A DNA stretch of 64,000 bases from Candidatus Poribacteria bacterium (GTDB lineage Bacteria; Poribacteria; WGA-4E; WGA-3G). Positions within the stretch are counted from its first letter, which is position 1. Each line of letters begins with the position of its first letter. The stretch is from NCBI GenBank assembly GCA_963665235.2, contig CAXXLX010000001.1, positions 1,472,001-1,536,000 on the forward strand. Reading direction: 5' to 3'. Shown piece after piece: positions 669 through 14,230 of the stretch. Under the pieces are notes generated by a model. The model was not told where the DNA came from and searched no databases. It was given only the letters and a program-made list of their open reading frames with translations. The position numbers were made by a program, and so were the translations under genes.

Positions 669-791
669 CAGAAGGGTCCGTATAAAAAGAGGAACCCTAT
701 TAGTACGAGTTGTGCTAAATAACTATTTGTCCAATATTATTTCACAATTATATAACGTCTTGTTAGTTTTTGTCATTGGTTGATTCCTTCT

Positions 792-921
792 TTAGTCCCA
801 GTATTCGGGCAAGCAGCCCGCTCTTTAAGGACGATATCTTTATAGAAAGTCGTTTCCGCCCCGGCCTCTTAGTCCCAGTATTCGGGCAAACAGCCCGCTC
901 CTCAAGGACGATATCTTTATA
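792..921 (+). repeat. two copies of a ~56-bp REP-like hairpin repeat (long form)
   Basis: TTAGTCCCAGTATTCGGGCAA[G/A]CAGCCCGCTC..AAGGACGATATCTTTATA at 792-848 and 869-921. Confidence 0.85.
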
Positions 922-1212
922 TGAATGTCAAATATCTGTGAAAACAACAAAAACAATGCGTTAACTGGCACAAGTCGTTATTAGTAGGATTTTCCGTTTT
1001 CTATAAATTGTCAGAATCTTGGATTACACGGATTTTAGGGTATGTAACATCCACAGTTTTGTGATTAAGGATGTTGCGTTTTTTCCGCATTATCGACACA
1101 TAAGTACAAAATACAAAATATTTACACAGGCCATGTCAAAGGGTGTGTAAAGTTTTTGTACAAGTAGAACTTACGCATTCCCCTCCGCTCCTCTACTAGC
1201 GGGATATCAGTA

Positions 1213-1344
1213 TTAGTCCCAGTATTCGGGCAAACAGCCCGCTCTTTAAGGACGATATCTTTATAGAAACACAAAACATGCACCCCCTCTTAGTCCCAGT
1301 ATTCAGGCAAGCAGCCTGCTCTTAAGGACGATATATTTATAGAA
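1213..1344 (+). repeat. two more copies of the long REP-like repeat
   Basis: Copies at 1213-1269 and 1290-1344; the second has the compensatory stem change CGGGC/GCCCG to CAGGC/GCCTG. Confidence 0.85.
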
Positions 1345-1433
1345 TGAAAAAAATGTTGTGGATTATTACCATTTATTGCCCGTCGCAGCCCTGATTCTAG
1401 TAGAAAAACGCATCGCGCATCACAACCCTATAC

Positions 1434-1717
1434 ACGCGAGCTTGATAATAAATATCCGTTTTCTCTAAACATTTTTGAGGTTCTCCGAAAAAAGCGGAAT
1501 GAGTGGAGCAGAAACGGCTGCTTCTATAAATATATCGTCCCTACGGGACTAAGAATCGGGGCGGAAATGGTTTTCTATAAATATATCGTCCCTACGGGAC
1601 TAAGAGGCGGGCAGAAACCCAGATGCCTATAAACATATCGTCCCTAAGGAGCGGACTTTCAGTATTCGGGCAACCAGCCCGCTCCTGATACGAGGGGAAA
1701 ATTTTTCAAACTCACGT
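1434..1717. mobile_element. MITE family B copy, interrupted by REP-like repeats
   Basis: Ends ACGCGAGCTTGATAATAAA...TTTTCAAACTCACGT; ends and internal sequence match 34365-34517 and 48321-48470. Confidence 0.7.
1521..1688 (-). repeat. three REP-like repeats (short form) in reverse orientation
   Basis: CTATAAATATATCGTCCCTACGGGACTAAG at 1524-1553 and 1575-1604, plus a degenerate copy from 1627. Confidence 0.8.
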
Positions 1718-1787
1718 TATACGACACGACGGGCGATGAATCGCCCTACTACGAACGGAGGTCCAAAAACTTTACGCACCCATGTCA

Positions 1788-3052
1788 CAGGGCCATTTAG
1801 TTTTAAGAATTTTCATGTGATGAGGTTAACTGCGAGTTTAGGTTTTGAGGCGAAAGATCGTATTGTCTCGGTGATTTTCGTATAACCGGCAAATCGTAAG
1901 ACTGCCAGTGCGGTGTTGCGTAAAGCTGCCATGACTTGGGGGATGCTGCCTGTTCTTGCTTTTGAGGCATCCTCTCCTAAAACCACGTCTCGAACCCAGT
2001 GGGATTTGTTTTCTATCGTCCAATGTTCTCGGTGTAGTTTTAGCAAGTCTTCCGCTGTTGCCTCTGCGACAAGTTAGTGATACCATACTGGATAGAAGTT
2101 TCACATTCACCTGTTTTGGTATTGACGCGCTGCACTTTGTATAGACTTGTGCAAGACCCGGCCAGTCAATATAATCTGACACGCTTGTGCTAGCTGTTCC
2201 CGTGTGATGATAAATCCGCGGTTTCTTCAACAAGGTGTGCCCCTGCTTGCGTGTGTGCGTTTTGAAGTCTGCCTTGATCGGGGGGGTCCGTCTAACAAGG
2301 GGGGCAAAGACCCACACAATATCGATATACATCTGTTTCTGATTCTTTTTGACACGCAGCACATAATAGGCTTTCTGTTTGATAAGTTCTTTACAAAAAG
2401 CACGTTGGGTCAATAGAGCATCCGTTGTCACCACTTTTCCTTTGACATCAAACTTTTCCAGCAGTTGCCGGGAAATAGGTATCTCATTGGTCTTGTGACT
2501 GACGGCACATGCAAGGGTAACCCCTAACTCATGACAGACAGCGGAGAGTAAATGGGTTCGGCGGCCGGTGTCTATGTCTATGGAACCGCAGAGTTCTTTA
2601 CCATCTATAGCAATGCCTTTCAAACCCGAGGGGTCTGTCCCTTCAAGAGCCGCAAGTTGTAAAGACACCCATTCGGTTGAGGGCGGTTTCTAAACTTTCT
2701 ATATCAAGATGCTTAAACAGATTATGAAAAACGGGGTCTTCCCACAACGGAAACCTAACGCTTCAGCCAGTTCAGGTTCATTGCGGGCCCAGGTCGCTAT
2801 AGACGTATAATATGACCGCACAGAAAACCGATAACATAAGAGCAAGGATGGAAACCAAAGGATGCCGTTTGCCTTTTGGGTGGATCTACAATTTGTGATA
2901 ATATACTGAGTAACATACTTCAACCTTCCTAAAAAAAAGGATTATTTTATTTACAGTGAAGTAAGCAGATGCAGCGAAAAAAGTCACGCTGCATCTGTCC
3001 AAATCAAAATAATAACAGATAGGAAAAAAATTCCTAAAACTAAATGGCCCTG
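1788..3052 (-). mobile_element. ISAs1-family insertion sequence (~1265 bp)
   Basis: IRs CAGGGCCATTTAGTTTTA[A/G]GAATTTT at both ends; perfect 10-bp target duplication ACCCATGTCA at 1778-1787 and 3053-3062. Confidence 0.93.
1813..2923 (-). pseudogene. ISAs1-family transposase, split by frameshifts
   Basis: Three fragments with ISAs1 motifs IAIDGK, KTNEIP, VVTTDALLTQR, VKKNQ and REHWTIENKSHWVRDVVLGED. Confidence 0.88.
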
Positions 3053-3071: not shown

Positions 3072-3100
3072 TTGACATAAAAAATGAAATAATGTAAAAT
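3072..3100 (+). promoter_or_regulatory. sigma70-type promoter
   Basis: TTGACA-N17-TAAAAT upstream of the 3.3-14.2 kb cluster. Confidence 0.7.
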
Positions 3101-3327: not shown

Positions 3328-4074
3328 ATGCGCAAACGATTAGAGTTAATTCTGACAGCCCTACTTCCTGTAGCGGTTTTGTCAATCGGTTTTGTCACGT
3401 TTTCTTCAAAGGCTGGACTAAATAGCAACGAAACGGCTTCTCCGAAAGCATCCGGTGATTATTACAGAGCACCCGGTAAGGATGGTATGTACTTCGGTCC
3501 AGAAGTCTATTCCAGCACTCTAAACGGTGGCCCTTTTAATAACGGCTTTGAGATTGTGTATACAAACGAGTGTGGCAGTGTTTCTGCATCATCCACTCCA
3601 AATGCTGTTAGTTGGCACCGAAACCAAGTTTGGTCTTTTAGCACGGACCCTGAACATGATACACCGCCATGGGGCACCACTTCCTCCTACATTGCCCTCA
3701 GAGACGACCTTGGATGGGACGAGATTAGTCTTGGTGGAGGAACTACCGGGTATCCCTGGGCAGGATACGAAATACATGAAAGTGAGGCCGATTCCCTCAT
3801 AGTATCAGGCTGGACCGACGTAACAGGGTATAGACGTCATCCCGTGGATGCTGATGCTGATGATGAGCCGATATACATCTGTCCGATGTACTACAAGACA
3901 GGGGACTGGGTCTATGATGGTGCCACTGGGGGTAAGTCTCCGGATAACGTAGAAGAATATAAACAATCGAAAGGTCGCTTTGGACCTCCTATGTTTCGCG
4001 ATGAAGAAGAGCAAATACTCAGTCGGTTCGTAGCGGATTTAGATCGTTGGTTTGACTGTATAGAGTTGAATTAG
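3328..4074 (+). CDS. exported Cys-containing protein, family A copy 1
   Basis: ATG 3328 after AAGGAG; N-terminal hydrophobic segment; clear paralogue of 11740-12504 (PWGT.TSYI.L.DDLGW.EIS.GGGTTGYPW, CPMYYK, RW.DCI). Confidence 0.8.
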   Translation: MRKRLELILTALLPVAVLSIGFVTFSSKAGLNSNETASPKASGDYYRAPGKDGMYFGPEVYSSTLNGGPFNNGFEIVYTNECGSVSASSTPNAVSWHRNQVWSFSTDPEHDTPPWGTTSSYIALRDDLGWDEISLGGGTTGYPWAGYEIHESEADSLIVSGWTDVTGYRRHPVDADADDEPIYICPMYYKTGDWVYDGATGGKSPDNVEEYKQSKGRFGPPMFRDEEEQILSRFVADLDRWFDCIELN

Positions 4075-4170
4075 ATCTCGTAGTTTCAACCTTTTCAAGC
4101 AATGGGAAGGGAAGTTTGTATCTTTTCCCATTGCTTCTTCGCTAATCTCACAAAGGCAAGGAGGTGCCAC

Positions 4171-4947
4171 ATGAAACAGATGGCAAAAACTTGGATAGGT
4201 CTTGTGTTAATCGTCATACTTAGTGTTTTATCTCTATCTGCTTCTGCTCAGGTTTTTCGGGATGATTTTGATGTCCTGAAAGAGGCTGACTGGGAGCTTT
4301 GGGATGACGCTTCTGATTCTGTGTGGCGAGTTAAAGATGGGTTTTTAAGGGTAGCAATACCATCGAATGACTTTTTTAGACCTGCTGGATTCTTCCAATT
4401 TAAGGGAATTCCGGGCAACTACGAGACCTTCGAATTTTTTATTGAAGACCTTTTAATTCAGCGGCAGGAAAAGAAACCGGGGCCTGAGGTTTTCACAATT
4501 AAAGTTAACAATTTGGGTTCAAAAAAGGCGAGTTTTGGTGTCGCCATTGGACGAAGATTTCCAGAAGTGAGCAAAGGATACTCGTTCTTTTATGTGTTTA
4601 CCACCTATGGAATAGAGGCAAAGGCGTACATGTGGTTTGGTGTAGATCATTGGTCGGACAAGGAACCGCGCCACCCTAACGTCTTTCGGGAGGGGATATG
4701 GGCATTAGCATCCATGGAGATTCGTTTTGATAGGGGACATTTTCTATGGTTTGCGGATGGTGAAAAACGCGCGGATTTTGAAGACCCCGATTTTTCACAA
4801 ATTGAGCTCATCGGGTTTCTAATACGACCAGGTATTTTGGATGGTGGGAGTGGATGGGTGGATTCATTTACGATTTCGTATTCAGGGCTTGCTGTTTCAC
4901 CGCAAACCAAGTTAGCGACAACGTGGGGAACGTTAAAACGGTTTTGA
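4171..4947 (+). CDS. secreted beta-sandwich protein with TTWG C-terminal motif, family B copy 1
   Basis: AGGAGG RBS; signal peptide ending ASA; ends AVSPQTKLATTWGTLKRF. Confidence 0.85.
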   Translation: MKQMAKTWIGLVLIVILSVLSLSASAQVFRDDFDVLKEADWELWDDASDSVWRVKDGFLRVAIPSNDFFRPAGFFQFKGIPGNYETFEFFIEDLLIQRQEKKPGPEVFTIKVNNLGSKKASFGVAIGRRFPEVSKGYSFFYVFTTYGIEAKAYMWFGVDHWSDKEPRHPNVFREGIWALASMEIRFDRGHFLWFADGEKRADFEDPDFSQIELIGFLIRPGILDGGSGWVDSFTISYSGLAVSPQTKLATTWGTLKRF

Positions 4948-5137
4948 ACGGACACAAAACCAGAACGGCCGTAGAAATAGGGATTTTTAACCCCCTATTC
5001 TCCTTATCGAGGGGGATGCGTAAGTCCTGAAAACTTTAACTAAATAGTTTTACCCTGACAGGAGACAATCTATTATGAAAGTTAAAACTGTAAGTTCCAT
5101 CTGCCGGTCCGTGTGTATTTTCAACCTCACTGCGGAC

Positions 5138-5908
5138 ATGAGGAAGTATATCATAAAGACCGTCCTTTGTGCTGTGCTTTTGGGGGTTTTTGCAATTGGA
5201 TATAGCCAGGCCGGAACTTGGAGCGACGATTTTAGTGGAGCGGAACTCAACGGATGGGAACGTATTTTCGAAGAGGATCCTTGGTCTGTAGATTGGAGAC
5301 TTGTAGCCTGGGGACCTATGGATGACCATTTCCTCCTCTTTGGTGATATTCGTATGCCTAAACAAGAGGGTGTGACAGCAGCCGATTTTCTGCACTGGAA
5401 CGCCCATCCATTTCAACTTGACAAGTTAAAGGTAGTAGGTGATGAGATACGTTATGGACGGCCCGCCTCTGGTGAACTTTGCTTATTCCTCGGCAAACGG
5501 CAACCCGAACCTGACTTTGCCGAAGGTTATATTTTTTCTCCTGAAAAGGCAACGAAAATGCAATTTACCGAAAATGGGGTGTATAATAAAGGGGAAGTGA
5601 AAGCCGAGTATGCCCCCATGTTCCGGCTGACTTCAGGAGACTTAAAGGTTTTTTTTGACACAGGAACATTTCAAATCTTTACGCAAGACCTTTTCATAAC
5701 GGAATTCTTTGACGCTGAGATTACTATGATTGATGTCATCGGTTTAATGATAGTGTTTGAATTTCCAGTTGCCGATGTGCGATGGTTTGATGGATCGATT
5801 TCAACCTTTTCGGTTTCCGGAGAGGGTATTCCGAATCATAATTCTCTTGATGTGCCGTTGGGAAACATGCAACTGACGACCACTTGGGGAGAATTGAAAC
5901 GTTTCTGA
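5138..5908 (+). CDS. secreted beta-sandwich protein with TTWG motif, subfamily C copy 1
   Basis: Signal peptide; WSDDF start of mature domain; ends MQLTTTWGELKRF; paralogue of 7848-8600. Confidence 0.82.
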   Translation: MRKYIIKTVLCAVLLGVFAIGYSQAGTWSDDFSGAELNGWERIFEEDPWSVDWRLVAWGPMDDHFLLFGDIRMPKQEGVTAADFLHWNAHPFQLDKLKVVGDEIRYGRPASGELCLFLGKRQPEPDFAEGYIFSPEKATKMQFTENGVYNKGEVKAEYAPMFRLTSGDLKVFFDTGTFQIFTQDLFITEFFDAEITMIDVIGLMIVFEFPVADVRWFDGSISTFSVSGEGIPNHNSLDVPLGNMQLTTTWGELKRF

Positions 5909-5950
5909 ACATATCACTTTATCAACCTCACAAAGGCAAGGAGGTGCCAC

Positions 5951-6739
5951 ATGAAACTGATAGCAAAGACCTGGGTGGGTCTTGTGTTAATCGTCGTACT
6001 TAGTGTTTTATCTCTATCTGCTTCTGCTCAGGTTTTTCGGGATAATTTTAATGTCCTGAAAGAGGATGACTGGGAGCTTTGGGATGCCGCCTCTGATTCT
6101 GTGTGGCGAGTTAAAGATGGTTTTTTAAGGGTAGCAATACCAGCGAATGACTTTTTTATTCCTGCTGCATTCTTCCAATTTAAGGGAATTCCTGGGAAGT
6201 ACGAGACCTTCGAATTTCTTATTGAGGACCTTTTAATTCAGCGGGAGGAAAAGAAACCGGGACCTGAGGACTTCACAATTAGGGTTAAAAATTTGGGTTC
6301 AAAAAGGGCGAGGTTTGGTGTCGCCATTGGACGAAGATTTCCCGAAGTGAGCAAAAGACACGCGTTTTTTTATGTGTTTACCACCTATGGAATAGAGGCA
6401 AAGGCTTACATGTGGTCTGGTACGAGTCATTGGTGGGACAAAGAACCGCGCCATCCTGACGTTTTTCGGCAGGGACTATTGGAATTATCATCCACGGAGA
6501 TTCGTTTTAATAAGGGACATTTTCAGTGGTTTGCGGATGGTGAAAAACGTGCAGAGTTTGAAGACCCCGATTTTGCACAAATTGAAATCATCGGGTTTCT
6601 AATACAAGCAAATATGTGGCATGTAGGGAGTGGATGGGTGAATTCGTTCAGGATTTCGGGGTCAGGGCTTTCGAAGCTTGCCGTTTCACCACAAGCCAAG
6701 TTAGCGACTACATGGGGGCAACTCAAACAGCGAAGGTGA
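5951..6739 (+). CDS. secreted beta-sandwich protein with TTWG motif, family B copy 2
   Basis: Nucleotide-level duplicate of 4171-4947 including the upstream CTCACAAAGGCAAGGAGGTGCCAC; ends AVSPQAKLATTWGQLKQRR. Confidence 0.88.
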   Translation: MKLIAKTWVGLVLIVVLSVLSLSASAQVFRDNFNVLKEDDWELWDAASDSVWRVKDGFLRVAIPANDFFIPAAFFQFKGIPGKYETFEFLIEDLLIQREEKKPGPEDFTIRVKNLGSKRARFGVAIGRRFPEVSKRHAFFYVFTTYGIEAKAYMWSGTSHWWDKEPRHPDVFRQGLLELSSTEIRFNKGHFQWFADGEKRAEFEDPDFAQIEIIGFLIQANMWHVGSGWVNSFRISGSGLSKLAVSPQAKLATTWGQLKQRR

Positions 6740-6743
6740 CATC

Positions 6744-7841
6744 ATGTCAAGACGTTCCGTTATCACAACAATCATCATTCCGGTGCTGCTGATTTCGGTG
6801 TTGGTTATCGTGCTCGTTAATAACCAGCGGGAGTTCCCTGGCGAGCTTGTTTTCGCGCAAAATAAGGTGGACTTCGGAACAATTCCTGAGTGGGAAGGGG
6901 TTGTAACACGTTCAGTGACAGCGAGAAATACGGGGGGAGGCACACTCCAAATAGAAAAAATTCGGGCAAGGTGTAGTTACGCAAAGATTACGGGCCCAAA
7001 ACTACTTCAACCCGCCGAGGAAGGAACGTTCGAAGTTGTGATTAATCCGCAAATCGTTCCGCTCGATGCGACCCCAGCGACGGCTGTCCTTTTCACGGAT
7101 AGCCCACGGACACCACAGGTTTATCTCACAATTGTCGCTTCGGCACAGCGGTTCGCCACCCTAAGCGCGGACATCTGCGATTTCGGAGAGATTCTCCCTG
7201 AAACGGTGCATGAAAAGCGGGTCAAACTGTGTGTAAACGCGCCACTCAATTTAGCGGAGGTCCGCCTCATGCCATCGACACATCCAGGGCTGATGTGGAA
7301 AATGTCGCCCGAGCCGGATTCAATCTGTTTCCACATCACAATTCAGTTGCAAGCTCCGAAAAAACGGGAACGGGTAGACACAGAGTCGCCTCCGGGCACT
7401 GCCGAAAACTTTTTTTCCGCGATACTTACCGTCGCTTTTCCGAATGAGCGAACTTTGACGTTGCCGATTGCTGCGAAAATAGTGCGTCCCGTGACAGTTC
7501 ACCCGGAAACCCTCTCCTACGGTGCGGTGGACAGAGGTACGGAGCCGTTTACTGAATTCACGCTCTCCGCGAAAAAAGGTTTTAAGGTGCTAAGTCTTCA
7601 GGTTCCGGACTCTGTGCGGGTTGCTGCGCCGGACGATTGGACGCAATCCTTACACGCCTACAACGCACACGGACAACCAGAGAAACGGTTCAAGGTTTTT
7701 TGGGAGGTGGCGAACTCACCTGAACTGCTGCGTGAAGAGATCCGGGTGCTGACCACAGCAGACCCGTTACCGCTCCGTATTCCTATTTACGGGTTAATTC
7801 GTTCCACAAAGGGTGGAACTATTACATCAGCTGGGAGGTAA
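6744..7841 (+). CDS. DUF1573-like (Ig/PapD-like) membrane-anchored protein
   Basis: N-terminal TM helix; VDFGTI...ARNTGGGTLQIEKIRARCSY...LQPAEEG pattern, repeated DFG motifs. Confidence 0.75.
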   Translation: MSRRSVITTIIIPVLLISVLVIVLVNNQREFPGELVFAQNKVDFGTIPEWEGVVTRSVTARNTGGGTLQIEKIRARCSYAKITGPKLLQPAEEGTFEVVINPQIVPLDATPATAVLFTDSPRTPQVYLTIVASAQRFATLSADICDFGEILPETVHEKRVKLCVNAPLNLAEVRLMPSTHPGLMWKMSPEPDSICFHITIQLQAPKKRERVDTESPPGTAENFFSAILTVAFPNERTLTLPIAAKIVRPVTVHPETLSYGAVDRGTEPFTEFTLSAKKGFKVLSLQVPDSVRVAAPDDWTQSLHAYNAHGQPEKRFKVFWEVANSPELLREEIRVLTTADPLPLRIPIYGLIRSTKGGTITSAGR

Positions 7842-7847
7842 ACTGTT

Positions 7848-8600
7848 ATGAGATATATCATAAAAATCGCTTTTAGTGTAGTGCTTTTGAGCATTTTCGC
7901 AATTGGACAGGGTTCTGCCGAAGTCTGGGTTGAGCCGTTTGAGGATGAGGAACTCAACGGGTGGGAATCCCCTGTGGAGCATTGGCGCGCCTGGTGGGAA
8001 GCTATAGAGGGAATGCTTTTCGCTCGAATTCAGAGATCCAATCACCGACCAATATGTGAGAAGAACATAGCAGATTTTCTGCACTGGAAAGCCGTTCAAT
8101 TTCAATTTGAGCAGTTAACAATGGTAGGCAAGGAAATGATTTATCAACAGGAGGGGCATAAAGGTATGGGGGAACTCTGTTTGTTCCTCGGTAAACAACA
8201 AATCGCACCTGACTTTGCAGTGGAGGGGTATATTGTCAGTCCCGAAGAGACAAGCAAAATGACGTTCTCCGAAACTGACGCTTACAATAGAGGCAAAACG
8301 AAGGCGTGGTACGGCGACAAATTCCCATTCACTACAGACCACCTAAAAGTTGTTTTTGATTCAGGAAAATTCCAGGTGTTTACGAACGAAGTCCTGCTAA
8401 CCGAATTTACGGATGATGACTTCACGAAGATTGATGTTGTGGGATTGGTCATTACGTGTCACTTCGGCGGCGACTGGTTTGGTGCCCGCATGTCAAGTTT
8501 TTCTATTTCTAATGTCGATATTCCTAATCATGGTCTTGCAGTTCAATTGCGGGGAACGCAGCTCGCTACAACCTGGGGAAATTTGAAGCAGTTTGAGTAA
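7848..8600 (+). CDS. secreted beta-sandwich protein with TTWG motif, subfamily C copy 2
   Basis: Shares ADFLHW, GELCLFLGK and EGYI.SPE with 5138-5908; ends TQLATTWGNLKQFE. Confidence 0.82.
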   Translation: MRYIIKIAFSVVLLSIFAIGQGSAEVWVEPFEDEELNGWESPVEHWRAWWEAIEGMLFARIQRSNHRPICEKNIADFLHWKAVQFQFEQLTMVGKEMIYQQEGHKGMGELCLFLGKQQIAPDFAVEGYIVSPEETSKMTFSETDAYNRGKTKAWYGDKFPFTTDHLKVVFDSGKFQVFTNEVLLTEFTDDDFTKIDVVGLVITCHFGGDWFGARMSSFSISNVDIPNHGLAVQLRGTQLATTWGNLKQFE

Positions 8601-10708
8601 TGTACAACGCTATCCGTGTTTATGTCGTCCTGTTTCTGCTATGTTTCGGGACTCCTATCGGCATCTGCCAATCCCAAAAGGTCGGAACAATTCAGGGACA
8701 GGTTACAGATAAACAAAACAATCCACTCACTGGCTACACCGTCTCAACAGTTTCACAAAGAGACGACATAACCTACGCTGCCAAAACTAAGGCTGATGGC
8801 CAGTTTACGCTTACCAACCTTCATGCCGACACCTGGACGATAGAAGTTCGCCACTTCAGCACCCTCCTTGCACAACGTGAGGTCACAGTTGCCGGCGAAA
8901 CCGAAGTCAAAGCAGATTTTGTGATTGAAGGAACAGCCGTTATTTCCGGATTTCTGCTCGATTCTGTCAGTAAACTCCCCTTGCCGATTACGGGTCAGAT
9001 ACAGATTGGTCTCCTCACGTCTGACGACGAATGGATAGAGAGGACATACCGAGGTGAAATCGCTCATGGATATTTTGAAGTCAAAGATTTGTTAGCGGGA
9101 CGCTACGCCATTATCGATGCTTTTGACGGTTATGTCTCTGCAATGTCCGATTTACCCGTGGTAGCAGTTTATCCAGGAAGCATTGTGGGTGGTGTAGAGA
9201 TATTTTTGAAACCGGGGGCATCGCTCTCCGGTGTTTTCGTTGATTCTGAAAGCCGAGCCCCTGTCTCCGGGGTTGCTGTCAACGTGGCATCTGAAGTGAA
9301 AAATACCGTTTATCCTGACAGGACGTTCGCACATAAAACAGAGACAGGCGTAAACGGTGAATTTCGCCTCACAACGCCAAGTGACCCTGAAATCTATTAC
9401 GCCTTCACGCTTATGGCATCGCACCCACGGTATCAAACGCACCAGTGGCGGCGGGAGCTGTCACCGGATAAAAATGTGTATGCGTTAGGTGAACGGACAC
9501 TGAACCCGTTCTTGTCGCTACAAGGCACGGTGTCAGCTTCAAACTCGCGCGAGGCTGTTGATGGACTCACAGTGCGTTTAAAGATGCACAACAGAGCGGC
9601 AGATTTTTTCCGCGCAGCAGCCCAACCTGAACACACAGTGCGTCCTGATGCAAACGGCAATTTCCTTTTCTCTGAACTCCACCCAATTGAATATAGTTTG
9701 ACAATTTCCCGGAACAGTGTTATTATAGTGAATAAGGAGTCGGTCAACCCGCAAAGCGGGAAACCGCTTAAAATCCGCTTGCCGAAAAAATTGGAGACGT
9801 TACGCGGCACAGTTGTCGATGCCGAACAACGTCCGATTGCCGGTGCGAATCTCTATGCAGCGCGGCGCAGCGAAACCCGGCACGGGCACGACGTGCTCCT
9901 GTCCAAAACACAAACGGATGCAAACGGGGTTTTCCAAATGCAGGTGTTAAAAACAAAACCGCATCTCCTGTCCCTTGAGGTATCCAAAAAAGGGTATCTG
10001 TCAAGGGTATATCCGAACGTGGAGCTCCAAAAAGAGCCGTTGACTGTTCCGCTTCAAAAAGGATTTACGATTAAGGGGCGCGTCATTCTCCCGCGGAATG
10101 TGTCACCAGATGGATATTACATTGTGAACCTCTTTCCCGAATCGGCAAAAATGGAGCCGACGTTGAATCCACTGGGATTGAATAGACCGCTTCTCTCAAA
10201 ACGATTTCCTGTAACGCAGCCGACTTTCGTACTGGATGGACTATTTGAGGAAAAATACAGCCTCTATATCGCCGGAGAGGGTATCGCTACAACCGACAAA
10301 TTGAAGTGCCAAGCAGATGTGGATAGTGGAGAAGTGCTCATCGTAGCGGATAGACCCACAGTGGAATTAAAGGGACAAGTGCTTTGGGCGGATACAGGCG
10401 AACCTGTGCAAAACGCCTCGGTATCTCGCTCGTGGTATCCGTGGGAACTAACCCAATACGATATGTCTTTAACCCTAGACCGCTTTGAAACCGAGACAGA
10501 CGCACAGGGACAATTTGCGTTCTCAAATTTGACACAGGCACAGTATCAGCTGCGCATCCGTGCTGTCCAGTCGGTATTTGAAAAAGGGGTTGATGCATAT
10601 CAACATGTGTACCTCCAGAAGCAGGTTGCAATACCAGCTTGTAGTGATAATGTGCATCGTATCTATATAGGGAAAGCGGACGGTACCGCTTTTGGAGGAA
10701 AAAAATGA
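8600..10708 (+). CDS. carboxypeptidase regulatory-like (prealbumin-fold) repeat protein, secreted
   Basis: Signal peptide; repeated G.I.G.V.D....P..GA.V ... TD..G.F motifs. Confidence 0.8.
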   Translation: MYNAIRVYVVLFLLCFGTPIGICQSQKVGTIQGQVTDKQNNPLTGYTVSTVSQRDDITYAAKTKADGQFTLTNLHADTWTIEVRHFSTLLAQREVTVAGETEVKADFVIEGTAVISGFLLDSVSKLPLPITGQIQIGLLTSDDEWIERTYRGEIAHGYFEVKDLLAGRYAIIDAFDGYVSAMSDLPVVAVYPGSIVGGVEIFLKPGASLSGVFVDSESRAPVSGVAVNVASEVKNTVYPDRTFAHKTETGVNGEFRLTTPSDPEIYYAFTLMASHPRYQTHQWRRELSPDKNVYALGERTLNPFLSLQGTVSASNSREAVDGLTVRLKMHNRAADFFRAAAQPEHTVRPDANGNFLFSELHPIEYSLTISRNSVIIVNKESVNPQSGKPLKIRLPKKLETLRGTVVDAEQRPIAGANLYAARRSETRHGHDVLLSKTQTDANGVFQMQVLKTKPHLLSLEVSKKGYLSRVYPNVELQKEPLTVPLQKGFTIKGRVILPRNVSPDGYYIVNLFPESAKMEPTLNPLGLNRPLLSKRFPVTQPTFVLDGLFEEKYSLYIAGEGIATTDKLKCQADVDSGEVLIVADRPTVELKGQVLWADTGEPVQNASVSRSWYPWELTQYDMSLTLDRFETETDAQGQFAFSNLTQAQYQLRIRAVQSVFEKGVDAYQHVYLQKQVAIPACSDNVHRIYIGKADGTAFGGKK

Positions 10709-10908
10709 AACCGAGTACCCGCTACGCAAAAATAGTCGAATGGTCTGACGAAGATGGATGTTATGTTGGAAGTTGTCCAGGGCTCTTTTACGGCGGCTGT
10801 CATGGTGATGATGAACAGGAGGTCTTTTCAGAATTGTGCAACATCGTTGAGGAGGTAATTGAAGAATATCAGCGTGAAGGTAAAACCCTACCTATCTTAG
10901 TCCCGTAG
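10705..10908 (+). CDS. hicB: HicB-family antitoxin (short form)
   Basis: EWSDEDGCYVGSCPGL..GCHGD..E..L....E...E.Y..EG..LP pattern; ATGA overlap with the upstream gene. Confidence 0.75.
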   Translation: MKPSTRYAKIVEWSDEDGCYVGSCPGLFYGGCHGDDEQEVFSELCNIVEEVIEEYQREGKTLPILVP

Positions 10909-10975
10909 GGACGATATATTTATAGAAGAGACCACCACACCTCTTAGTCCCATAGGGACGATATATTTATAGAAG
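10896..10975 (+). repeat. two short-form REP-like repeats
   Basis: CTTAGTCCC[G/A]TAGGGACGATATATTTATAGAAG at 10896-10928 and 10943-10975. Confidence 0.85.
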
Positions 10976-11033
10976 CACAAAACGTCCGCCCTCTAATATA
11001 TTTCTTGCCAATCGCTAATCGCTAATCGCTAAC

Positions 11034-11720
11034 ATGAGAAACCTTTTGAGAATATTCATAACAATTTTTGCCATCCTCGTTTTACAAGGAATTGCCGATG
11101 CCGTTACATGGCAAGATGACTTTACGCAGGAAACAGAAGATAACTGGCAACTCATAGGAAACGATTCTGTATGGCAAATTGACGATGGATTTTTAAAAGT
11201 AGAAATTCAGACCGAAAAGCAGTGGCGAACCCTCTTCGAACTGTACCAATTTATAGCCTTCCCCGGTCCCTATAATAACGTTACAATCACACTTGAAACT
11301 ATCGGGGTATCGGACGCACGATTCGGTATTGCCATAGGAAAACGTTTCCTAAATACCGAAGGAGAAGTAGAGGAAACAGGGTATTATCTATTTTTCACAA
11401 ACGATATGCAAGCGTCACGAAACCAAAACGTCTTTATCGGGCCCGGTCAACGTTGGAACACAGACGAACTCAAACAGATGGTGTTACACATTAACAACGG
11501 TCGATTTCAACTGTTCGGTGATGACGAATTGCGCATGGATTTTACGGACGCGAACCTCACACAAATTGACATCATCGGGTTTGTTCTCGTCGACTATGTT
11601 ACAGATGCCGTAAGCACAGCGAGAGCCTGGGTAGATAAATGGACGATTTCCGGGCTTTCAGTTTCACCAAAGGACAAACTCACCACGCTCTGGGGACACC
11701 TGAAGAAAAAACAGCCGTAA
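11034..11720 (+). CDS. secreted beta-sandwich protein with TTWG-type motif, family B copy 3
   Basis: Signal peptide; WQDDF, SVWQIDDGFL, ELYQF, IDIIGF; ends SVSPKDKLTTLWGHLKK. Confidence 0.85.
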   Translation: MRNLLRIFITIFAILVLQGIADAVTWQDDFTQETEDNWQLIGNDSVWQIDDGFLKVEIQTEKQWRTLFELYQFIAFPGPYNNVTITLETIGVSDARFGIAIGKRFLNTEGEVEETGYYLFFTNDMQASRNQNVFIGPGQRWNTDELKQMVLHINNGRFQLFGDDELRMDFTDANLTQIDIIGFVLVDYVTDAVSTARAWVDKWTISGLSVSPKDKLTTLWGHLKKKQP

Positions 11721-11739
11721 ATTGTCATCTAGGAAAATT

Positions 11740-12504
11740 ATGTTGCGAAAAAATTTAGATCTGGTCTTTAACGCCCTTCTGCTATTACTCGTTTTAGGTG
11801 TCGCGTTCTGGGGTAGATTTGTTAGCGCGAGATTGAACTCGAGCGAACGGGCGCAACCCGCCGCATCGGGTGCGTACTATAGAACCCCCGGTAAAAACGG
11901 AAGGTGGTTCGGCCCCGAAGTGAATTCCCTCACACTCTGCGAAGGTGTCCATAATCCTTACAACAATAGAGGGTTTTTTGACATCGTTGAAACGATTGAG
12001 AACGCGGTAGTGTCCGCGTCAAGAATTCGCGGCGCGCTCCGCTGGTATCGTGGACAAAAGTGGGTTTTTGGAACAAACGACACTCCATGGGGAACAAACA
12101 CCTCCTACATCACCCTCCACGACGATTTGGGGTGGAGTGAAATCAGTCCTGGCGGCGGCACAACGGGGTATCCGTGGAGTGGCATTGAACGACACTGGCG
12201 CGATGGCGACATTATCCGCTCACAGGCAGTCGTGGTAGGATGGCGGCAGCAGCGATACGGCTCACAGCTATGGGTTTGCCCCATGTACTATAAAATCGGC
12301 GGCTGGGAAGGTGAACACCTTGAAGTCCACTGCCACACTCTCAGAACATGGTTTCCACCCGACTGGAACGTTCTCAAACAGAAGGATGGCGACTTCGGGA
12401 GACCCACCGAACGCAAACCCGGAGTGCTAAGCCGAAGAGGGCACAAAACCTCCCGCTGGTACGACTGTATACGGATATCCGAAGGTGATTCAAATCCGAG
12501 GTGA
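11740..12504 (+). CDS. exported Cys-containing protein, family A copy 2
   Basis: Paralogue of 3328-4074; ATG 11740 after AGGA. Confidence 0.8.
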   Translation: MLRKNLDLVFNALLLLLVLGVAFWGRFVSARLNSSERAQPAASGAYYRTPGKNGRWFGPEVNSLTLCEGVHNPYNNRGFFDIVETIENAVVSASRIRGALRWYRGQKWVFGTNDTPWGTNTSYITLHDDLGWSEISPGGGTTGYPWSGIERHWRDGDIIRSQAVVVGWRQQRYGSQLWVCPMYYKIGGWEGEHLEVHCHTLRTWFPPDWNVLKQKDGDFGRPTERKPGVLSRRGHKTSRWYDCIRISEGDSNPR

Positions 12505-12544
12505 ATTCCCTCACGCTCTGTTACAACAATAGGTTTTTCAAATT

Positions 12545-13264
12545 ATGTCTAACAGAAATTCGGCAAAATCGCTTTTAATAGTATGGATAGCTGTTTATGC
12601 CACTATTGGCTGCACTCTATCTGCAGCGGCAGTGCGCTGGCATGACGATTTCGATACCGAAAACCCCGAAGCGTGGCACGTCGTCGGAAACCGCTCTGTC
12701 TGGAAAGTCGCGGATGGCACCTTGCAGGCACACGTCGATCGGGACTGGGATGTGCGGTATGAACTCTACCAATTCATAGCAGTCCCGCCCCCCTACAGAA
12801 ACTGGACAATTATTATAAACGACTTTGGCGGCGACAAGGTCCGCTTCGGTCTCTGCATCGGACGACATTTTCCGGAGACCGCCAAAGAAGACCCGTTTTT
12901 TTATGTCTTTTTTCCCGATGAAATTAGAGCCCGAAGATTCAACGGCAAAGGCAGCAGTCATCCGTTTCGGGTCCGGTTATCCCGCGAACCTCGGACACGA
13001 TGGAACACAGATGTGCTGCAACAGATGGAGCTGCATTTCAATTCCGGATATTTCCTACTGTTCGCAGATGGTGAATTCCGAACGGCATTCCGTGATGCAA
13101 ATTTCGCTAGCGTTGAAATAATAGGTTTTGTCCTAGAGGGCATTAATATTGCAAACGAATGGGTCGGCCAGGGATGGGCAGGGTCATTCACTATTTCGGG
13201 ACTAGATGTCTCCGCAGAGCTCCGATTAACCTCAAGTTGGGCACAGCTCAAAGGAAACCGATAG
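12545..13264 (+). CDS. secreted beta-sandwich protein with degenerate TTWG motif, family B copy 4
   Basis: WHDDF, SVWKVADG, ELYQF, VEIIGF; ends DVSAELRLTSSWAQLKGNR. Confidence 0.82.
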   Translation: MSNRNSAKSLLIVWIAVYATIGCTLSAAAVRWHDDFDTENPEAWHVVGNRSVWKVADGTLQAHVDRDWDVRYELYQFIAVPPPYRNWTIIINDFGGDKVRFGLCIGRHFPETAKEDPFFYVFFPDEIRARRFNGKGSSHPFRVRLSREPRTRWNTDVLQQMELHFNSGYFLLFADGEFRTAFRDANFASVEIIGFVLEGINIANEWVGQGWAGSFTISGLDVSAELRLTSSWAQLKGNR

Positions 13265-13280
13265 GCATCCGCAAACCGAC

Positions 13281-13766
13281 ATGCAAATTCACACCGCAAC
13301 CCCTCCTGAGCGCATATCCCATCGGCAAATCTACAAAGAAGCACTCATCGTCATTCTCTACATCGGGGTTGGTGCGCTAACGCTTTGGAGCACAGACCAG
13401 CTCGGGTATCTCTCCTCTACCGTTCAACCTATCAGCGGAACCGCCATGGTAGTTGAGTTTCCCGCTGTCCATCAAATCTGGAAACGGGGAGAGGCAGTAT
13501 TCGTTGATGCACGCTCGGCTGGTAGCTTCAGGCGGGGCCATATTCCTGGTGCCATCAATGTGCCTATCAACCGGGTCAAACAAACCCTCCCCGCACTGCC
13601 GACAGACAAAGAGACGCTACTAATTACCTATTGCGGGAGCATAGAATGCCCAAACGCCTATCAACTGATGCATCTGCTGTTAGGGTACGGTTACCGAAAC
13701 GTCAGGTTTCTCCCGCGGGGTCTAAAAGACTGGCAGGCATTAGGGTATCCAGTAGAGACAGAATGA
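13281..13766 (+). CDS. rhodanese-like domain protein, membrane-anchored
   Basis: VFVDARS...F..GHIPGAINVP; active-site loop YCGSIECPNA. Confidence 0.88.
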   Translation: MQIHTATPPERISHRQIYKEALIVILYIGVGALTLWSTDQLGYLSSTVQPISGTAMVVEFPAVHQIWKRGEAVFVDARSAGSFRRGHIPGAINVPINRVKQTLPALPTDKETLLITYCGSIECPNAYQLMHLLLGYGYRNVRFLPRGLKDWQALGYPVETE

Positions 13767-14230
13767 CGATTTCATCAGTCCTAATAACAGCCCTTAGAGT
13801 CCTCCTCGGTGTCATCCTGCTTTTTGCGGGTATTGCCAAACTCTCAGGGTTCACTGCTTTCGCTATGCATGTCGCCAGCTATCAGTTGTTACCGATAGCA
13901 TTGGTCAAACCGATAAGTTATCTAGTGGTATCAGCAGAGATAACGCTAGGGGTGGTATTGTGCATCGGTTATTTTTCGCGGGGGGCAGGTATACTTGCAT
14001 CGCTTCTCTTTCTGATATTTGCAGTAGCCGTGACAACCGTGTTATGGCGAGAGCTGCCGTTGACAGATTGCGGGTGTGCCAATTTCCTCTTTAGTTTGTT
14101 GTTAGAGATGAAAACAGCTCCGAGCTGGCAGCACGTGTTCGGGAATGTCGTGCTAGCAGGTGGCAGTTTTGCCGTTACCTATTCCTCGCAGCGGGGATAC
14201 GGTTTGGAATCGTTCATCAAATGTTTGTAG
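13763..14230 (+). CDS. MauE/DoxX-family redox-associated membrane protein
   Basis: RVLLGVILLFAGIAKL, Y.LLP, AEITLG, DCGC motif; ATGA overlap with the rhodanese gene. Confidence 0.85.
   Translation: MTISSVLITALRVLLGVILLFAGIAKLSGFTAFAMHVASYQLLPIALVKPISYLVVSAEITLGVVLCIGYFSRGAGILASLLFLIFAVAVTTVLWRELPLTDCGCANFLFSLLLEMKTAPSWQHVFGNVVLAGGSFAVTYSSQRGYGLESFIKCL

Follow-up and report, generated by a model that had tools for sequence, protein, structure and literature searches.

An STT3-linked gene cluster of Poribacteria encoding lectin-fold, orphan secreted and thiol-redox proteins, and its possible role in extracytoplasmic glycosylation

This analysis concerns a 64,000-nucleotide stretch of DNA (the window; G000:C1:1472001-1536000) from a 5.3-Mb Candidatus Poribacteria assembly, and in particular 13 of its genes, which form most of a Poribacteria-specific gene cluster whose gene combination was previously undescribed. 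They encode two paralogous secreted proteins (A1 and A2), six tagged proteins assigned to a concanavalin-A-like fold (B1 to B4, C1 and C2; collectively B/C), a prealbumin-repeat protein (CPD), an immunoglobulin (Ig)-like DUF1573 protein, a rhodanese, a MauE membrane protein and a small open reading frame (ORF) labelled 'hicB'. The cluster extends upstream of these genes to the window start and beyond, where a gene for an STT3-type oligosaccharyltransferase is found. Judged from comparative genomics only, the cluster may serve glycosylation, glycan binding and oxidative protein folding outside the cytoplasm, as a module built around STT3 in which CPD-B-A-B is the persistent core, a reading to which we would assign a probability of roughly 0.45. 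New here are the link to STT3, the restricted distribution of MauE and the absence of a fold match for A. A literature search found no description of the cluster, of the C-terminal TTWG tag of its B/C proteins or of a Poribacteria oligosaccharyltransferase, and the gene combination matched none of the named systems tested here, as an earlier sequence-only reading of this DNA had also held.

The STT3 transferase and the conserved gene set

The start of the transferase gene, at G000:C1:1469792 (full ORF L001:9792-12668), lies upstream of the window, where the gene is directly preceded by C0, a seventh B/C paralogue. The sequence-only reading had listed the 13 genes correctly but had overlooked this WWDYG-type STT3, which belongs to the same conserved set. 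The protein matches the Pfam STT3 profile (PF02516) with 54.3 bits against 24.5 (2e-14), relatives from two other loci scoring 57 bits (L025) and 70.9 bits (L045), and STT3-PglB_core is also matched. The sequence AAWWDYGS is present in all eight full-length cluster STT3 proteins. The acidic segment ADRDA, in which D170 and D172 are invariant (7/7), aligns with YDNEA of yeast STT3, whose acidic residues at these positions we take to be catalytic. The best solved relatives are the yeast and human STT3 proteins.

This is the sole WWDYG STT3 in the genome. Other STT3-like ORFs, lacking WWDYG, lie at G000:C1:2201012-2203461, 2849111-2851601, 3495708-3498298, 803682-805715 and 2112998-2114083; three of them are split into two ORFs, and they may be decaying or divergent paralogues of the glycosyltransferase-C (GT-C) type. 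Among GTDB species representatives, ten loci encode an STT3 at least 49% identical to that of the cluster. All ten are from Poribacteria, five being genomes already sampled here, and B is found at every one of them, DUF1573 at nine, CPD at eight and A at eight. More distant STT3 paralogues sit in other contexts. One of these, a WWDYG STT3 of 27% identity in an Armatimonadota metagenome-assembled genome (L064), has a match to the B profile four ORFs upstream, a hint that such pairing of transferase and lectin-fold protein may not be confined to Poribacteria.

The neighbourhood was mapped at 21 loci, namely that of the present genome and 20 others, which represent five further genera and come from assemblies that are complete or large; these genomes are related, so the counts that follow overstate independence. 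The CPD-B-A-B core is complete at 18 of the 21, spanning six genera, the three incomplete loci being one that ends at the edge of the fetched stretch, one without B4 and one that is a secondary partial locus. For comparison, DUF1573 is present at 14, the rhodanese-MauE pair at eight and STT3 at six. STT3 is absent from the neighbourhood in genera g2, g3 and g6, and the rhodanese-MauE pair in g3 and g6. Co-occurrence of A and B/C with DUF1573, MauE and rhodanese, proposed as a test by the sequence-only reading, was observed in family f1 and in one genome each of f5 and f3.

The order of the genes varies considerably. In the window it is A1-B1-C1-B2-DUF1573-C2-CPD-'hicB'-B3-A2-B4-rhodanese-MauE, all 13 ORFs lying on the + strand, exactly as the sequence-only reading had reported. 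The uninterrupted order seen in g5 is C-STT3-DUF1573-C-B-CPD-('hicB')-B-A-B-rhodanese-MauE, while g4 has CPD-B-A-B-DUF1573-STT3, and further variation within f1 is exemplified by L053 and L048. A single contig of G005 (f5) carries A'-B-B-rhodanese-MauE-DUF1573-A-B-B'-sugar epimerase/dehydratase-STT3-CPD, and G029 (f3) has CPD-A-B-B-HEAT-B-MauE-DUF1573-B-STT3. Rather than being scattered with no conserved neighbourhood, an outcome that the sequence-only reading had named as counting against it, the gene set thus recurs in three families. That the same families recur in three orders is the strongest argument for one functional set.

Two further features of the neighbourhood were seen in other genomes. 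A Sulfotransfer_5 gene on the opposite strand flanks the cluster on its MauE side at five loci of g5 (L027, L029, L035, L039 and L040), adjoining MauE in four of them and B4 in L029, where rhodanese and MauE are missing; it is absent from the window. Upstream of CPD in six g5/g6 loci (L032, L036-L038, L040 and L041) there is a conserved block comprising an extracytoplasmic-function (ECF) sigma factor, a tetratricopeptide-repeat (TPR)-thioredoxin/redoxin protein and two or three tandem 247-residue proteins of no known family; this neighbour of the cluster may have a regulatory or redox function.

The ancestral content of the proposed module would comprise seven components: the WWDYG STT3, the DUF1573 Ig-like protein, CPD, A, several B/C proteins, the two-Cys rhodanese and MauE. 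STT3 would transfer a lipid-linked glycan outside the cytoplasm, and the lectin-fold B/C proteins, being non-catalytic, would bind the glycan or the glycoprotein. MauE, acting as a DsbB-like oxidase, would reoxidise the CX4C rhodanese, which in turn would form disulfides in those members that bear Cys, namely A and the DUF1573 protein, and the lipoprotein CPD would be the scaffold on which the products assemble. In the present genome, insertions of miniature inverted-repeat transposable elements (MITEs) and insertion sequences (ISs) have cut the cluster between STT3 and A1, and recent duplications (C0/C1, B1/B2 and the A1 copy) have enlarged it.

Table 1. Features of the locus, in window coordinates
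Feature	Position	Strand	Remarks
STT3/AglB-type oligosaccharyltransferase, last 221 of 958 codons	3..668	+	ORF open at 5' end of window
Mobile-element debris between STT3 and A1	705..3052		blastn against genome, 237 matches
Sigma-70-like promoter, TTGACA-17-TAAAAT	3072..3100	+	Consensus match only, 11/12 positions
A1, lineage-specific paralogue of orphan secreted protein A	3328..4074	+	45% identity to A2; A1-type only in g1/g5 loci
B1, tagged ConA-like fold protein	4168..4947	+	Recent duplicate of B2, 79% identity, dN/dS 0.49
C1, tagged ConA-like fold protein	5138..5908	+	Recent duplicate of C0, 83% identity
B2, tagged ConA-like fold protein	5951..6739	+	Full-length alignment to B/C set; 86 homologues
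Membrane-anchored DUF1573 / HYDIN-VesB-like Ig-domain protein	6744..7841	+	Pfam
C2, tagged ConA-like fold protein	7848..8600	+	Full-length alignment to B/C set
CPD, 702 aa, five carboxypeptidase-regulatory-like (prealbumin-like) domains	8600..10708	+	Pfam 1.3e-48; probable lipoprotein
67-aa 'hicB' ORF	10705..10908	+	Conserved in g5, 84-88% identity in 5 loci
Hairpin repeat, two direct copies of 32-base unit with hairpin GTCCC-NTA-GGGAC	10898..10976	+	'hicB'-B3 spacer; terminator-like matches
B3, core tagged ConA-like fold protein	11034..11720	+	AlphaFold2 model, Foldseek, conserved synteny
A2, core orphan secreted protein	11722..12504	+	Four conserved Cys, no detectable fold match
B4, core tagged ConA-like fold protein	12545..13264	+	Full-length alignment, conserved synteny
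Membrane-anchored rhodanese-like protein, CX4C	13281..13766	+	Pfam 2e-16; CX4C 9/9
MauE/DoxX membrane protein, CGC	13763..14230	+	Pfam 2.2e-20; CGC 9/9

Several observations weigh against this reading. The core is flanked by housekeeping genes in g2, g3, g4 and g6, with rplM-rpsI-purA on one side and, in g3 and g6, SecA on the other; part of the synteny may be inertia, which weakens the case that synteny alone can make. The core can do without STT3 and without MauE. The searched genomes of g2, g3 and g6 yielded no orthologous STT3, their best matches being 27-35% identical, and in three g5 loci (L050, L051 and L054) the STT3 gene is split into two ORFs, which suggests that the transferase is being lost in some symbiont lineages. 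In one of these split genes an ORF on the opposite strand lies between the halves. PF07291, the MauE family, is absent from all five g3/g6 genomes that keep CPD-B-A-B, and the four Cys residues of A are nevertheless retained in g6. N-X-S/T sequons are not enriched, with 0.43-0.58 per 100 residues in cluster proteins against 0.43 in the genome, and the idea that the cluster proteins are heavily N-glycosylated substrates was accordingly rejected. No glycan-assembly glycosyltransferases or flippase were present among the 13 genes or the window ORFs up to 32 kb; one GT9 heptosyltransferase lies 11 kb away. Finally, contigs assembled from two RNA runs of one metatranscriptome study contain fragments of eight genes (A1, B1, DUF1573, CPD, B3, A2, B4 and MauE) at 90-99% identity, but none spans a gene junction; DNA carry-over is possible, and the uncovered parts are uninformative.

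The housekeeping flanks, together with the close kinship of the genomes compared, would also suit the view that there is no system here, merely unrelated genes for exported proteins kept together by slow rearrangement in a conserved chromosomal region. We regard this as the least probable of the explanations considered, since the same families are found in f3 and f5 in other orders and with other flanks, since the order differs even within f1, and since A and strong MauE matches are jointly present or jointly absent across families.

Lectin-fold proteins, their tag and protein A

The six B/C proteins are homologous from end to end, with identities to B1 of 79, 35, 36, 23 and 25%, and their alignment contains 22 invariant columns, the W, L and K of the tail among them. 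Each source name given for the homologues of B2 is Candidatus Poribacteria. None of the six matched a curated Pfam or NCBIfam family, such as Laminin_G_3 or DUF1080, at E<=0.1 above chance level. The AlphaFold2 model of B3 has a predicted local distance difference test (pLDDT) value of 90.2, with the tail of about 17 residues modelled as a low-confidence helix. Foldseek yielded 476 PDB matches for this model at E<=0.001 (best E 2.7e-7, TM, the template-modelling score, about 0.5), headed by enzymes of glycoside hydrolase family 16 (GH16), legume lectins and YesU. On the basis of this model, B3 is assigned to the concanavalin-A-like jelly rolls, and the earlier description of six paralogous tagged beta-sandwich proteins is borne out by the alignment and the fold together.

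The fold matches of B3 also include GH16 O-glycanases, laminarinases and carbohydrate-binding module family 66 (CBM66), and A contains many invariant Trp, Tyr and Glu residues, as might be expected were this a glycan-foraging locus of the polysaccharide-utilisation type, in which B/C and A would capture or cleave host polysaccharides. However, the catalytic strand motif of GH16, taken as E-x-D-x(x)-E, is found in none of 59 B/C ORFs, no transporter, SusC/D or glycoside hydrolase family occurs among the 13 proteins or their conserved neighbours, and the linked enzyme, STT3, is biosynthetic rather than degradative. Foraging is thus very unlikely and, because the GH16 motif is lacking, the modelled fold makes binding the more likely role for B/C than hydrolysis.

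Seven strong B/C copies are present in the genome, all at this locus, and an eighth forms the C-terminal domain of a WD40 protein. This latter (784 residues; L043:3123-5477, G000:C1:1697113-1699476) consists of an N-terminal WD40 propeller and a C-terminal tagged B-type domain, showing that the B domain is a portable module. A search for longer, fused relatives of B3 found none, which is weak evidence. Exported proteins of the lectin fold abound in the wider region, where three tandem ORFs of some 250 residues, 13-15 kb upstream of the window (G000:C1:1456870-1459220), match the B/C profile weakly (E 2e-6 to 1e-4).

The A1-B1-C1-B2 segment is a lineage-specific expansion. C0 and C1 (dS 0.23, dN/dS 0.35) have about 85 bases of upstream sequence in common, and B1 and B2 have likewise diverged with a dS of 0.23. 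These values, with an excess of replacements in a few 30-codon windows only, led us to reject positive selection on the recent duplicates; the sequence comparison points instead to relaxed purifying selection, with diversifying selection not demonstrated. The 'diversification' of the sequence-only reading is accordingly weak.

The C-terminal TTWG tail is a tag that occurs phylum-wide. Of the 59 B/C ORFs from the 21 loci, 58 end in it or in a close variant, so that the sequence-only reading was right to see it as common to these proteins, but it is not specific to the locus. The ending [TS][TSL]W[GA]x[LIVM]K closes 49 ORFs across this genome, two of them Laminin_G_3 proteins near the locus, and its coding pattern is present in 170 of 176 Poribacteria genomes, representing every family, while a reversed control gave almost no matches. 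The Por_Secre_tail profile of the type IX secretion system (T9SS) C-terminal sorting domain matched none of the six B/C proteins. A was considered as a general receptor or processing enzyme for the tag and rejected: the tag is phylum-wide while A is limited to f1 with only three occurrences elsewhere, and the cluster is therefore not the general machinery of the tag.

CPD matches CarboxypepD_reg (PF13620) with 163.7 bits in five stretches, prealbumin-like SpaA being also included, and all 21 orthologues have Cys23 where the signal peptide ends; from its sequence CPD is a probable lipoprotein. This lipobox-type Cys, the retention of the core at 18 of the 21 loci despite loss or relocation of STT3 and MauE, and the export tag that B/C proteins bear like many other lectin-fold proteins are all compatible with CPD-B-A-B being a self-sufficient surface or periplasmic structure. 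It would consist of lectin-like binders on a lipoprotein stalk, perhaps for sponge matrix glycans, with STT3, DUF1573 and the rhodanese-MauE pair as ancestral neighbours having separate general roles. Such an arrangement is possible, although we hold it to be on the unlikely side. Separate general roles would leave two facts unexplained: cluster-type STT3 and true MauE are essentially confined to genomes with the cluster, being almost never found in Poribacteria without it, and they travel with it through three rearranged layouts.

Protein A, of which A1 and A2 are paralogues (E 2e-54) as the sequence-only reading had claimed of its two Cys-containing exported proteins, has by sequence no detectable relatives outside its own family. 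Nine homologues were found among 5.8 billion clustered proteins and 40, by profile search, among 1.84 billion representatives, with no usable match in Pfam, NCBIfam or the ESM Atlas. One candidate relative, the 1296-residue T9SS/PKD protein P0129 (profile E 4.9e-7), was discarded as spurious when hhalign gave a probability of 1.5%. The model of A has a pLDDT of 86.3; Foldseek gave no match at E<=0.001 (best E 0.038), and exhaustive comparison with 48,161 chains by VIA-align a best Z of 3.4, a weak match which does not alone prove a new fold. Aligned sequences show a signal peptide with a conserved A-x-A site, and of 28 proteins all keep C73, C204 and C249 while 24 keep C186. Among the 176 Poribacteria genomes, 113 have A, distributed as 109/111 in f1, 2/29 in f3, 1/3 in f5 and none in other families. 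Prediction of a complex between the A2 ectodomain and B3 scored 0.01, which speaks neither for nor against binding.

The MauE-rhodanese pair and remaining features of the locus

The last two genes of the cluster form a pair, the rhodanese being always directly upstream of MauE. The rhodanese match (PF00581) scores 60.7 bits against 22.2; C118 is invariant and followed four residues on by the second Cys in all nine orthologues, and the catalytic loop, CGSIEC, lacks Arg or Thr, which we take to be unusual. MauE (PF07291; 73.7 bits, cut-off 27) is the only one in the genome. Its likely start is the ATG at 13763, overlapping the rhodanese stop, and its CGC occupies residues 147 and 149 of the long ORF. 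This motif is followed by A-N-F, where F-G is common according to a recent preprint (10.64898/2026.03.05.709764). The same source describes MauE replacing DsbB in E. coli through its CXC site (Gonzalez et al., bioRxiv, 10.64898/2026.03.05.709764). Five Poribacteria genomes (G000, G069, G169, G142 and G068) yielded no DsbB (PF02600) and no VKOR (PF07884). Genomes of g3/g6 lack MauE too, yet A keeps its four conserved Cys there.

Strong PF07291 matches (E<=1.2e-15) were obtained in 47 of 176 genomes: the present one, 3/3 of g2, 1/2 of g4, 39/40 of g5, and G029, G005 and G006. A further 23 matches, weak and partial, are DoxX-like. Because strong matches are limited in this way, a role for MauE as a phylum-wide housekeeping substitute for DsbB was rejected. 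A is carried by 46 of the 47 strong-MauE genomes, and in 38 of them, by a tally made by eye from coordinates, MauE lies within 10 kb of A. Since the core persists without MauE in g3 and g6, and in G069 the rhodanese-MauE pair is 2 Mb away from the cluster, the pair is a cluster-linked but dispensable accessory, and MauE is not among the parts that the core requires.

The sequence-only reading had joined MauE, rhodanese and DUF1573 in a dedicated folding or disulfide module maturing variable B/C binders, or effector-partner pairs of A with B/C. The tight placement of rhodanese and MauE after B4, the confinement of MauE to cluster genomes and its proximity to A, and the invariance of CX4C and CGC would all suit such a module. 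Its proposed substrates would not: of the 59 B/C proteins, 31 lack Cys beyond the signal peptide and 11 contain a single one. Most thus cannot form a disulfide, and B/C cannot be the disulfide clients. Moreover, the core survives without MauE, the recent duplicates show no diversifying selection, and STT3, which co-occurs as regularly, is left out of account. We therefore consider this explanation improbable. Under the preferred STT3-centred reading, sequence conservation makes A and the DUF1573 protein, not B/C, the plausible redox clients of the pair. In the DUF1573 protein, which exceeds the gathering score of its family (PF07610; 34.7 bits against 26.1, E 1.8e-8; 46 bits for the G005 orthologue), Cys145 is found in all 12 orthologues and Cys77 in 11 of them, and its gene adjoins STT3 in g4, g5, f3 and f5 loci.

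Pfam thus confirmed four of the earlier labels, DUF1573, prealbumin repeat, CX4C rhodanese and CGC MauE, the motifs being present as described. A fifth, 'hicB', found no support, neither the window ORF nor an 83-residue orthologue giving a Pfam match even at E<=1, nor any NCBIfam match. The only hit against PDB sequences was a weak Kunitz-type one (E 0.0068; Cys spacing and an FYGGC motif), judged to be chance because the ORF has no signal peptide. A PIN ORF adjoins the 'hicB' ORF in L039 and L028, and 'hicB' is probably a toxin-antitoxin remnant lodged in the cluster and not a part of the system. The 23-base core of the hairpin repeat that follows it has 220 copies in the genome, marking the repeat as a repetitive extragenic palindromic (REP)/MITE-like element.

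Spacing between the genes is tight at nine junctions, which lie between -4 and 42 bases, while three are wider, at 93, 125 and 190 bases, so that the earlier description of the genes as tightly spaced holds in part. In order, the gaps are A1-B1 93, B1-C1 190, C1-B2 42, B2-DUF1573 4, DUF1573-C2 6, C2-CPD -1, CPD-'hicB' -4, 'hicB'-B3 125, B3-A2 1, A2-B4 40, B4-rhodanese 16 and rhodanese-MauE -4. Similarly, the consensus promoter sequence that had been proposed is present, its -35 hexamer beginning 20 bases past the end of the IS, but a second site of equal quality lies within the CPD gene (9698-9726), and the total of 16 promoter-like sites matches the 15.6 expected from shuffles. The debris between STT3 and A1 comprises repeats (705-980 and 1141-1782) that recur many times in the genome at 83-97% identity, together with an IS copy (1788-3052). 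This copy is 95% identical to C1:1909063-1910385 and contains a DDE transposase ORF on the - strand (1838-2668; Pfam DDE_Tnp_1, 9.8e-8).

Comparison with known systems and significance

With the Campylobacter pgl locus (PglB), archaeal AglB and eukaryotic STT3 the cluster shares a single WWDYG STT3-family transferase, aligned acidic motifs and an envelope gene cluster, and its STT3 resembles PglB less in sequence than it does eukaryotic STT3 among solved structures or archaeal AglB among genomes. A further shared feature is the nucleotide-sugar epimerase/dehydratase gene beside STT3 in G005, where it is the only such neighbour. In contrast to pgl loci, glycan-assembly glycosyltransferases and a flippase are not adjacent in this window, and STT3 is accompanied by lectin-fold, Ig-like, prealbumin-repeat and thiol-redox proteins. 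We know of no bacterial STT3 system with accessory proteins of this kind.

The pair resembles the MauE disulfide pathway (10.64898/2026.03.05.709764) and the DsbB-DsbA system, in that a CXC (CGC) MauE is present where DsbB and VKOR were not found in the five genomes searched. It differs from both in that the partner is a membrane-anchored CX4C rhodanese and not a thioredoxin-fold DsbA or MauD; rhodanese is not mentioned in the preprint (10.64898/2026.03.05.709764). It differs also in that the Poribacteria MauE is cluster-linked and not general.

The eukaryotic oligosaccharyltransferase (OST) contains the thioredoxin-like subunits Ost3/Ost6 (TUSC3/MagT1), and the endoplasmic reticulum (ER) has the lectins malectin and calnexin. 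The grouping of STT3 with thiol-redox, beta-sandwich membrane and lectin-fold proteins resembles OST with the ER lectins, by analogy only: no homology was shown between the accessory proteins here and OST subunits or ER lectins, and binding by B/C is predicted. By extension, the cluster might be a bacterial counterpart of the ER glycoprotein factory, with an STT3 station and DUF1573 subunit, B/C readers, A and a MauE-to-rhodanese relay coupling glycosylation to oxidative folding, although at this strength the analogy seems to us unlikely to hold.

Even conservatively, the picture drawn from the sequence-only reading is changed. Its gene set does co-occur in three families, but the tail is a general tag and not locus-specific, the B/C proteins are not disulfide substrates, and a key enzyme, overlooked, lies just outside the 13-gene interval it had reported. 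A, which combines a confident model with the lack of any detectable structural relative, is a good target for structure determination. If the STT3-centred reading is true, STT3-type protein glycosylation would reach a new bacterial phylum, and the newly proposed MauE pathway would gain a non-thioredoxin partner, the two-Cys rhodanese, together with defined candidate clients. It would also provide the first functional context for the orphan families A, B/C and DUF1573, all three of them nearly ubiquitous in the family that dominates among sponge-symbiotic Poribacteria.

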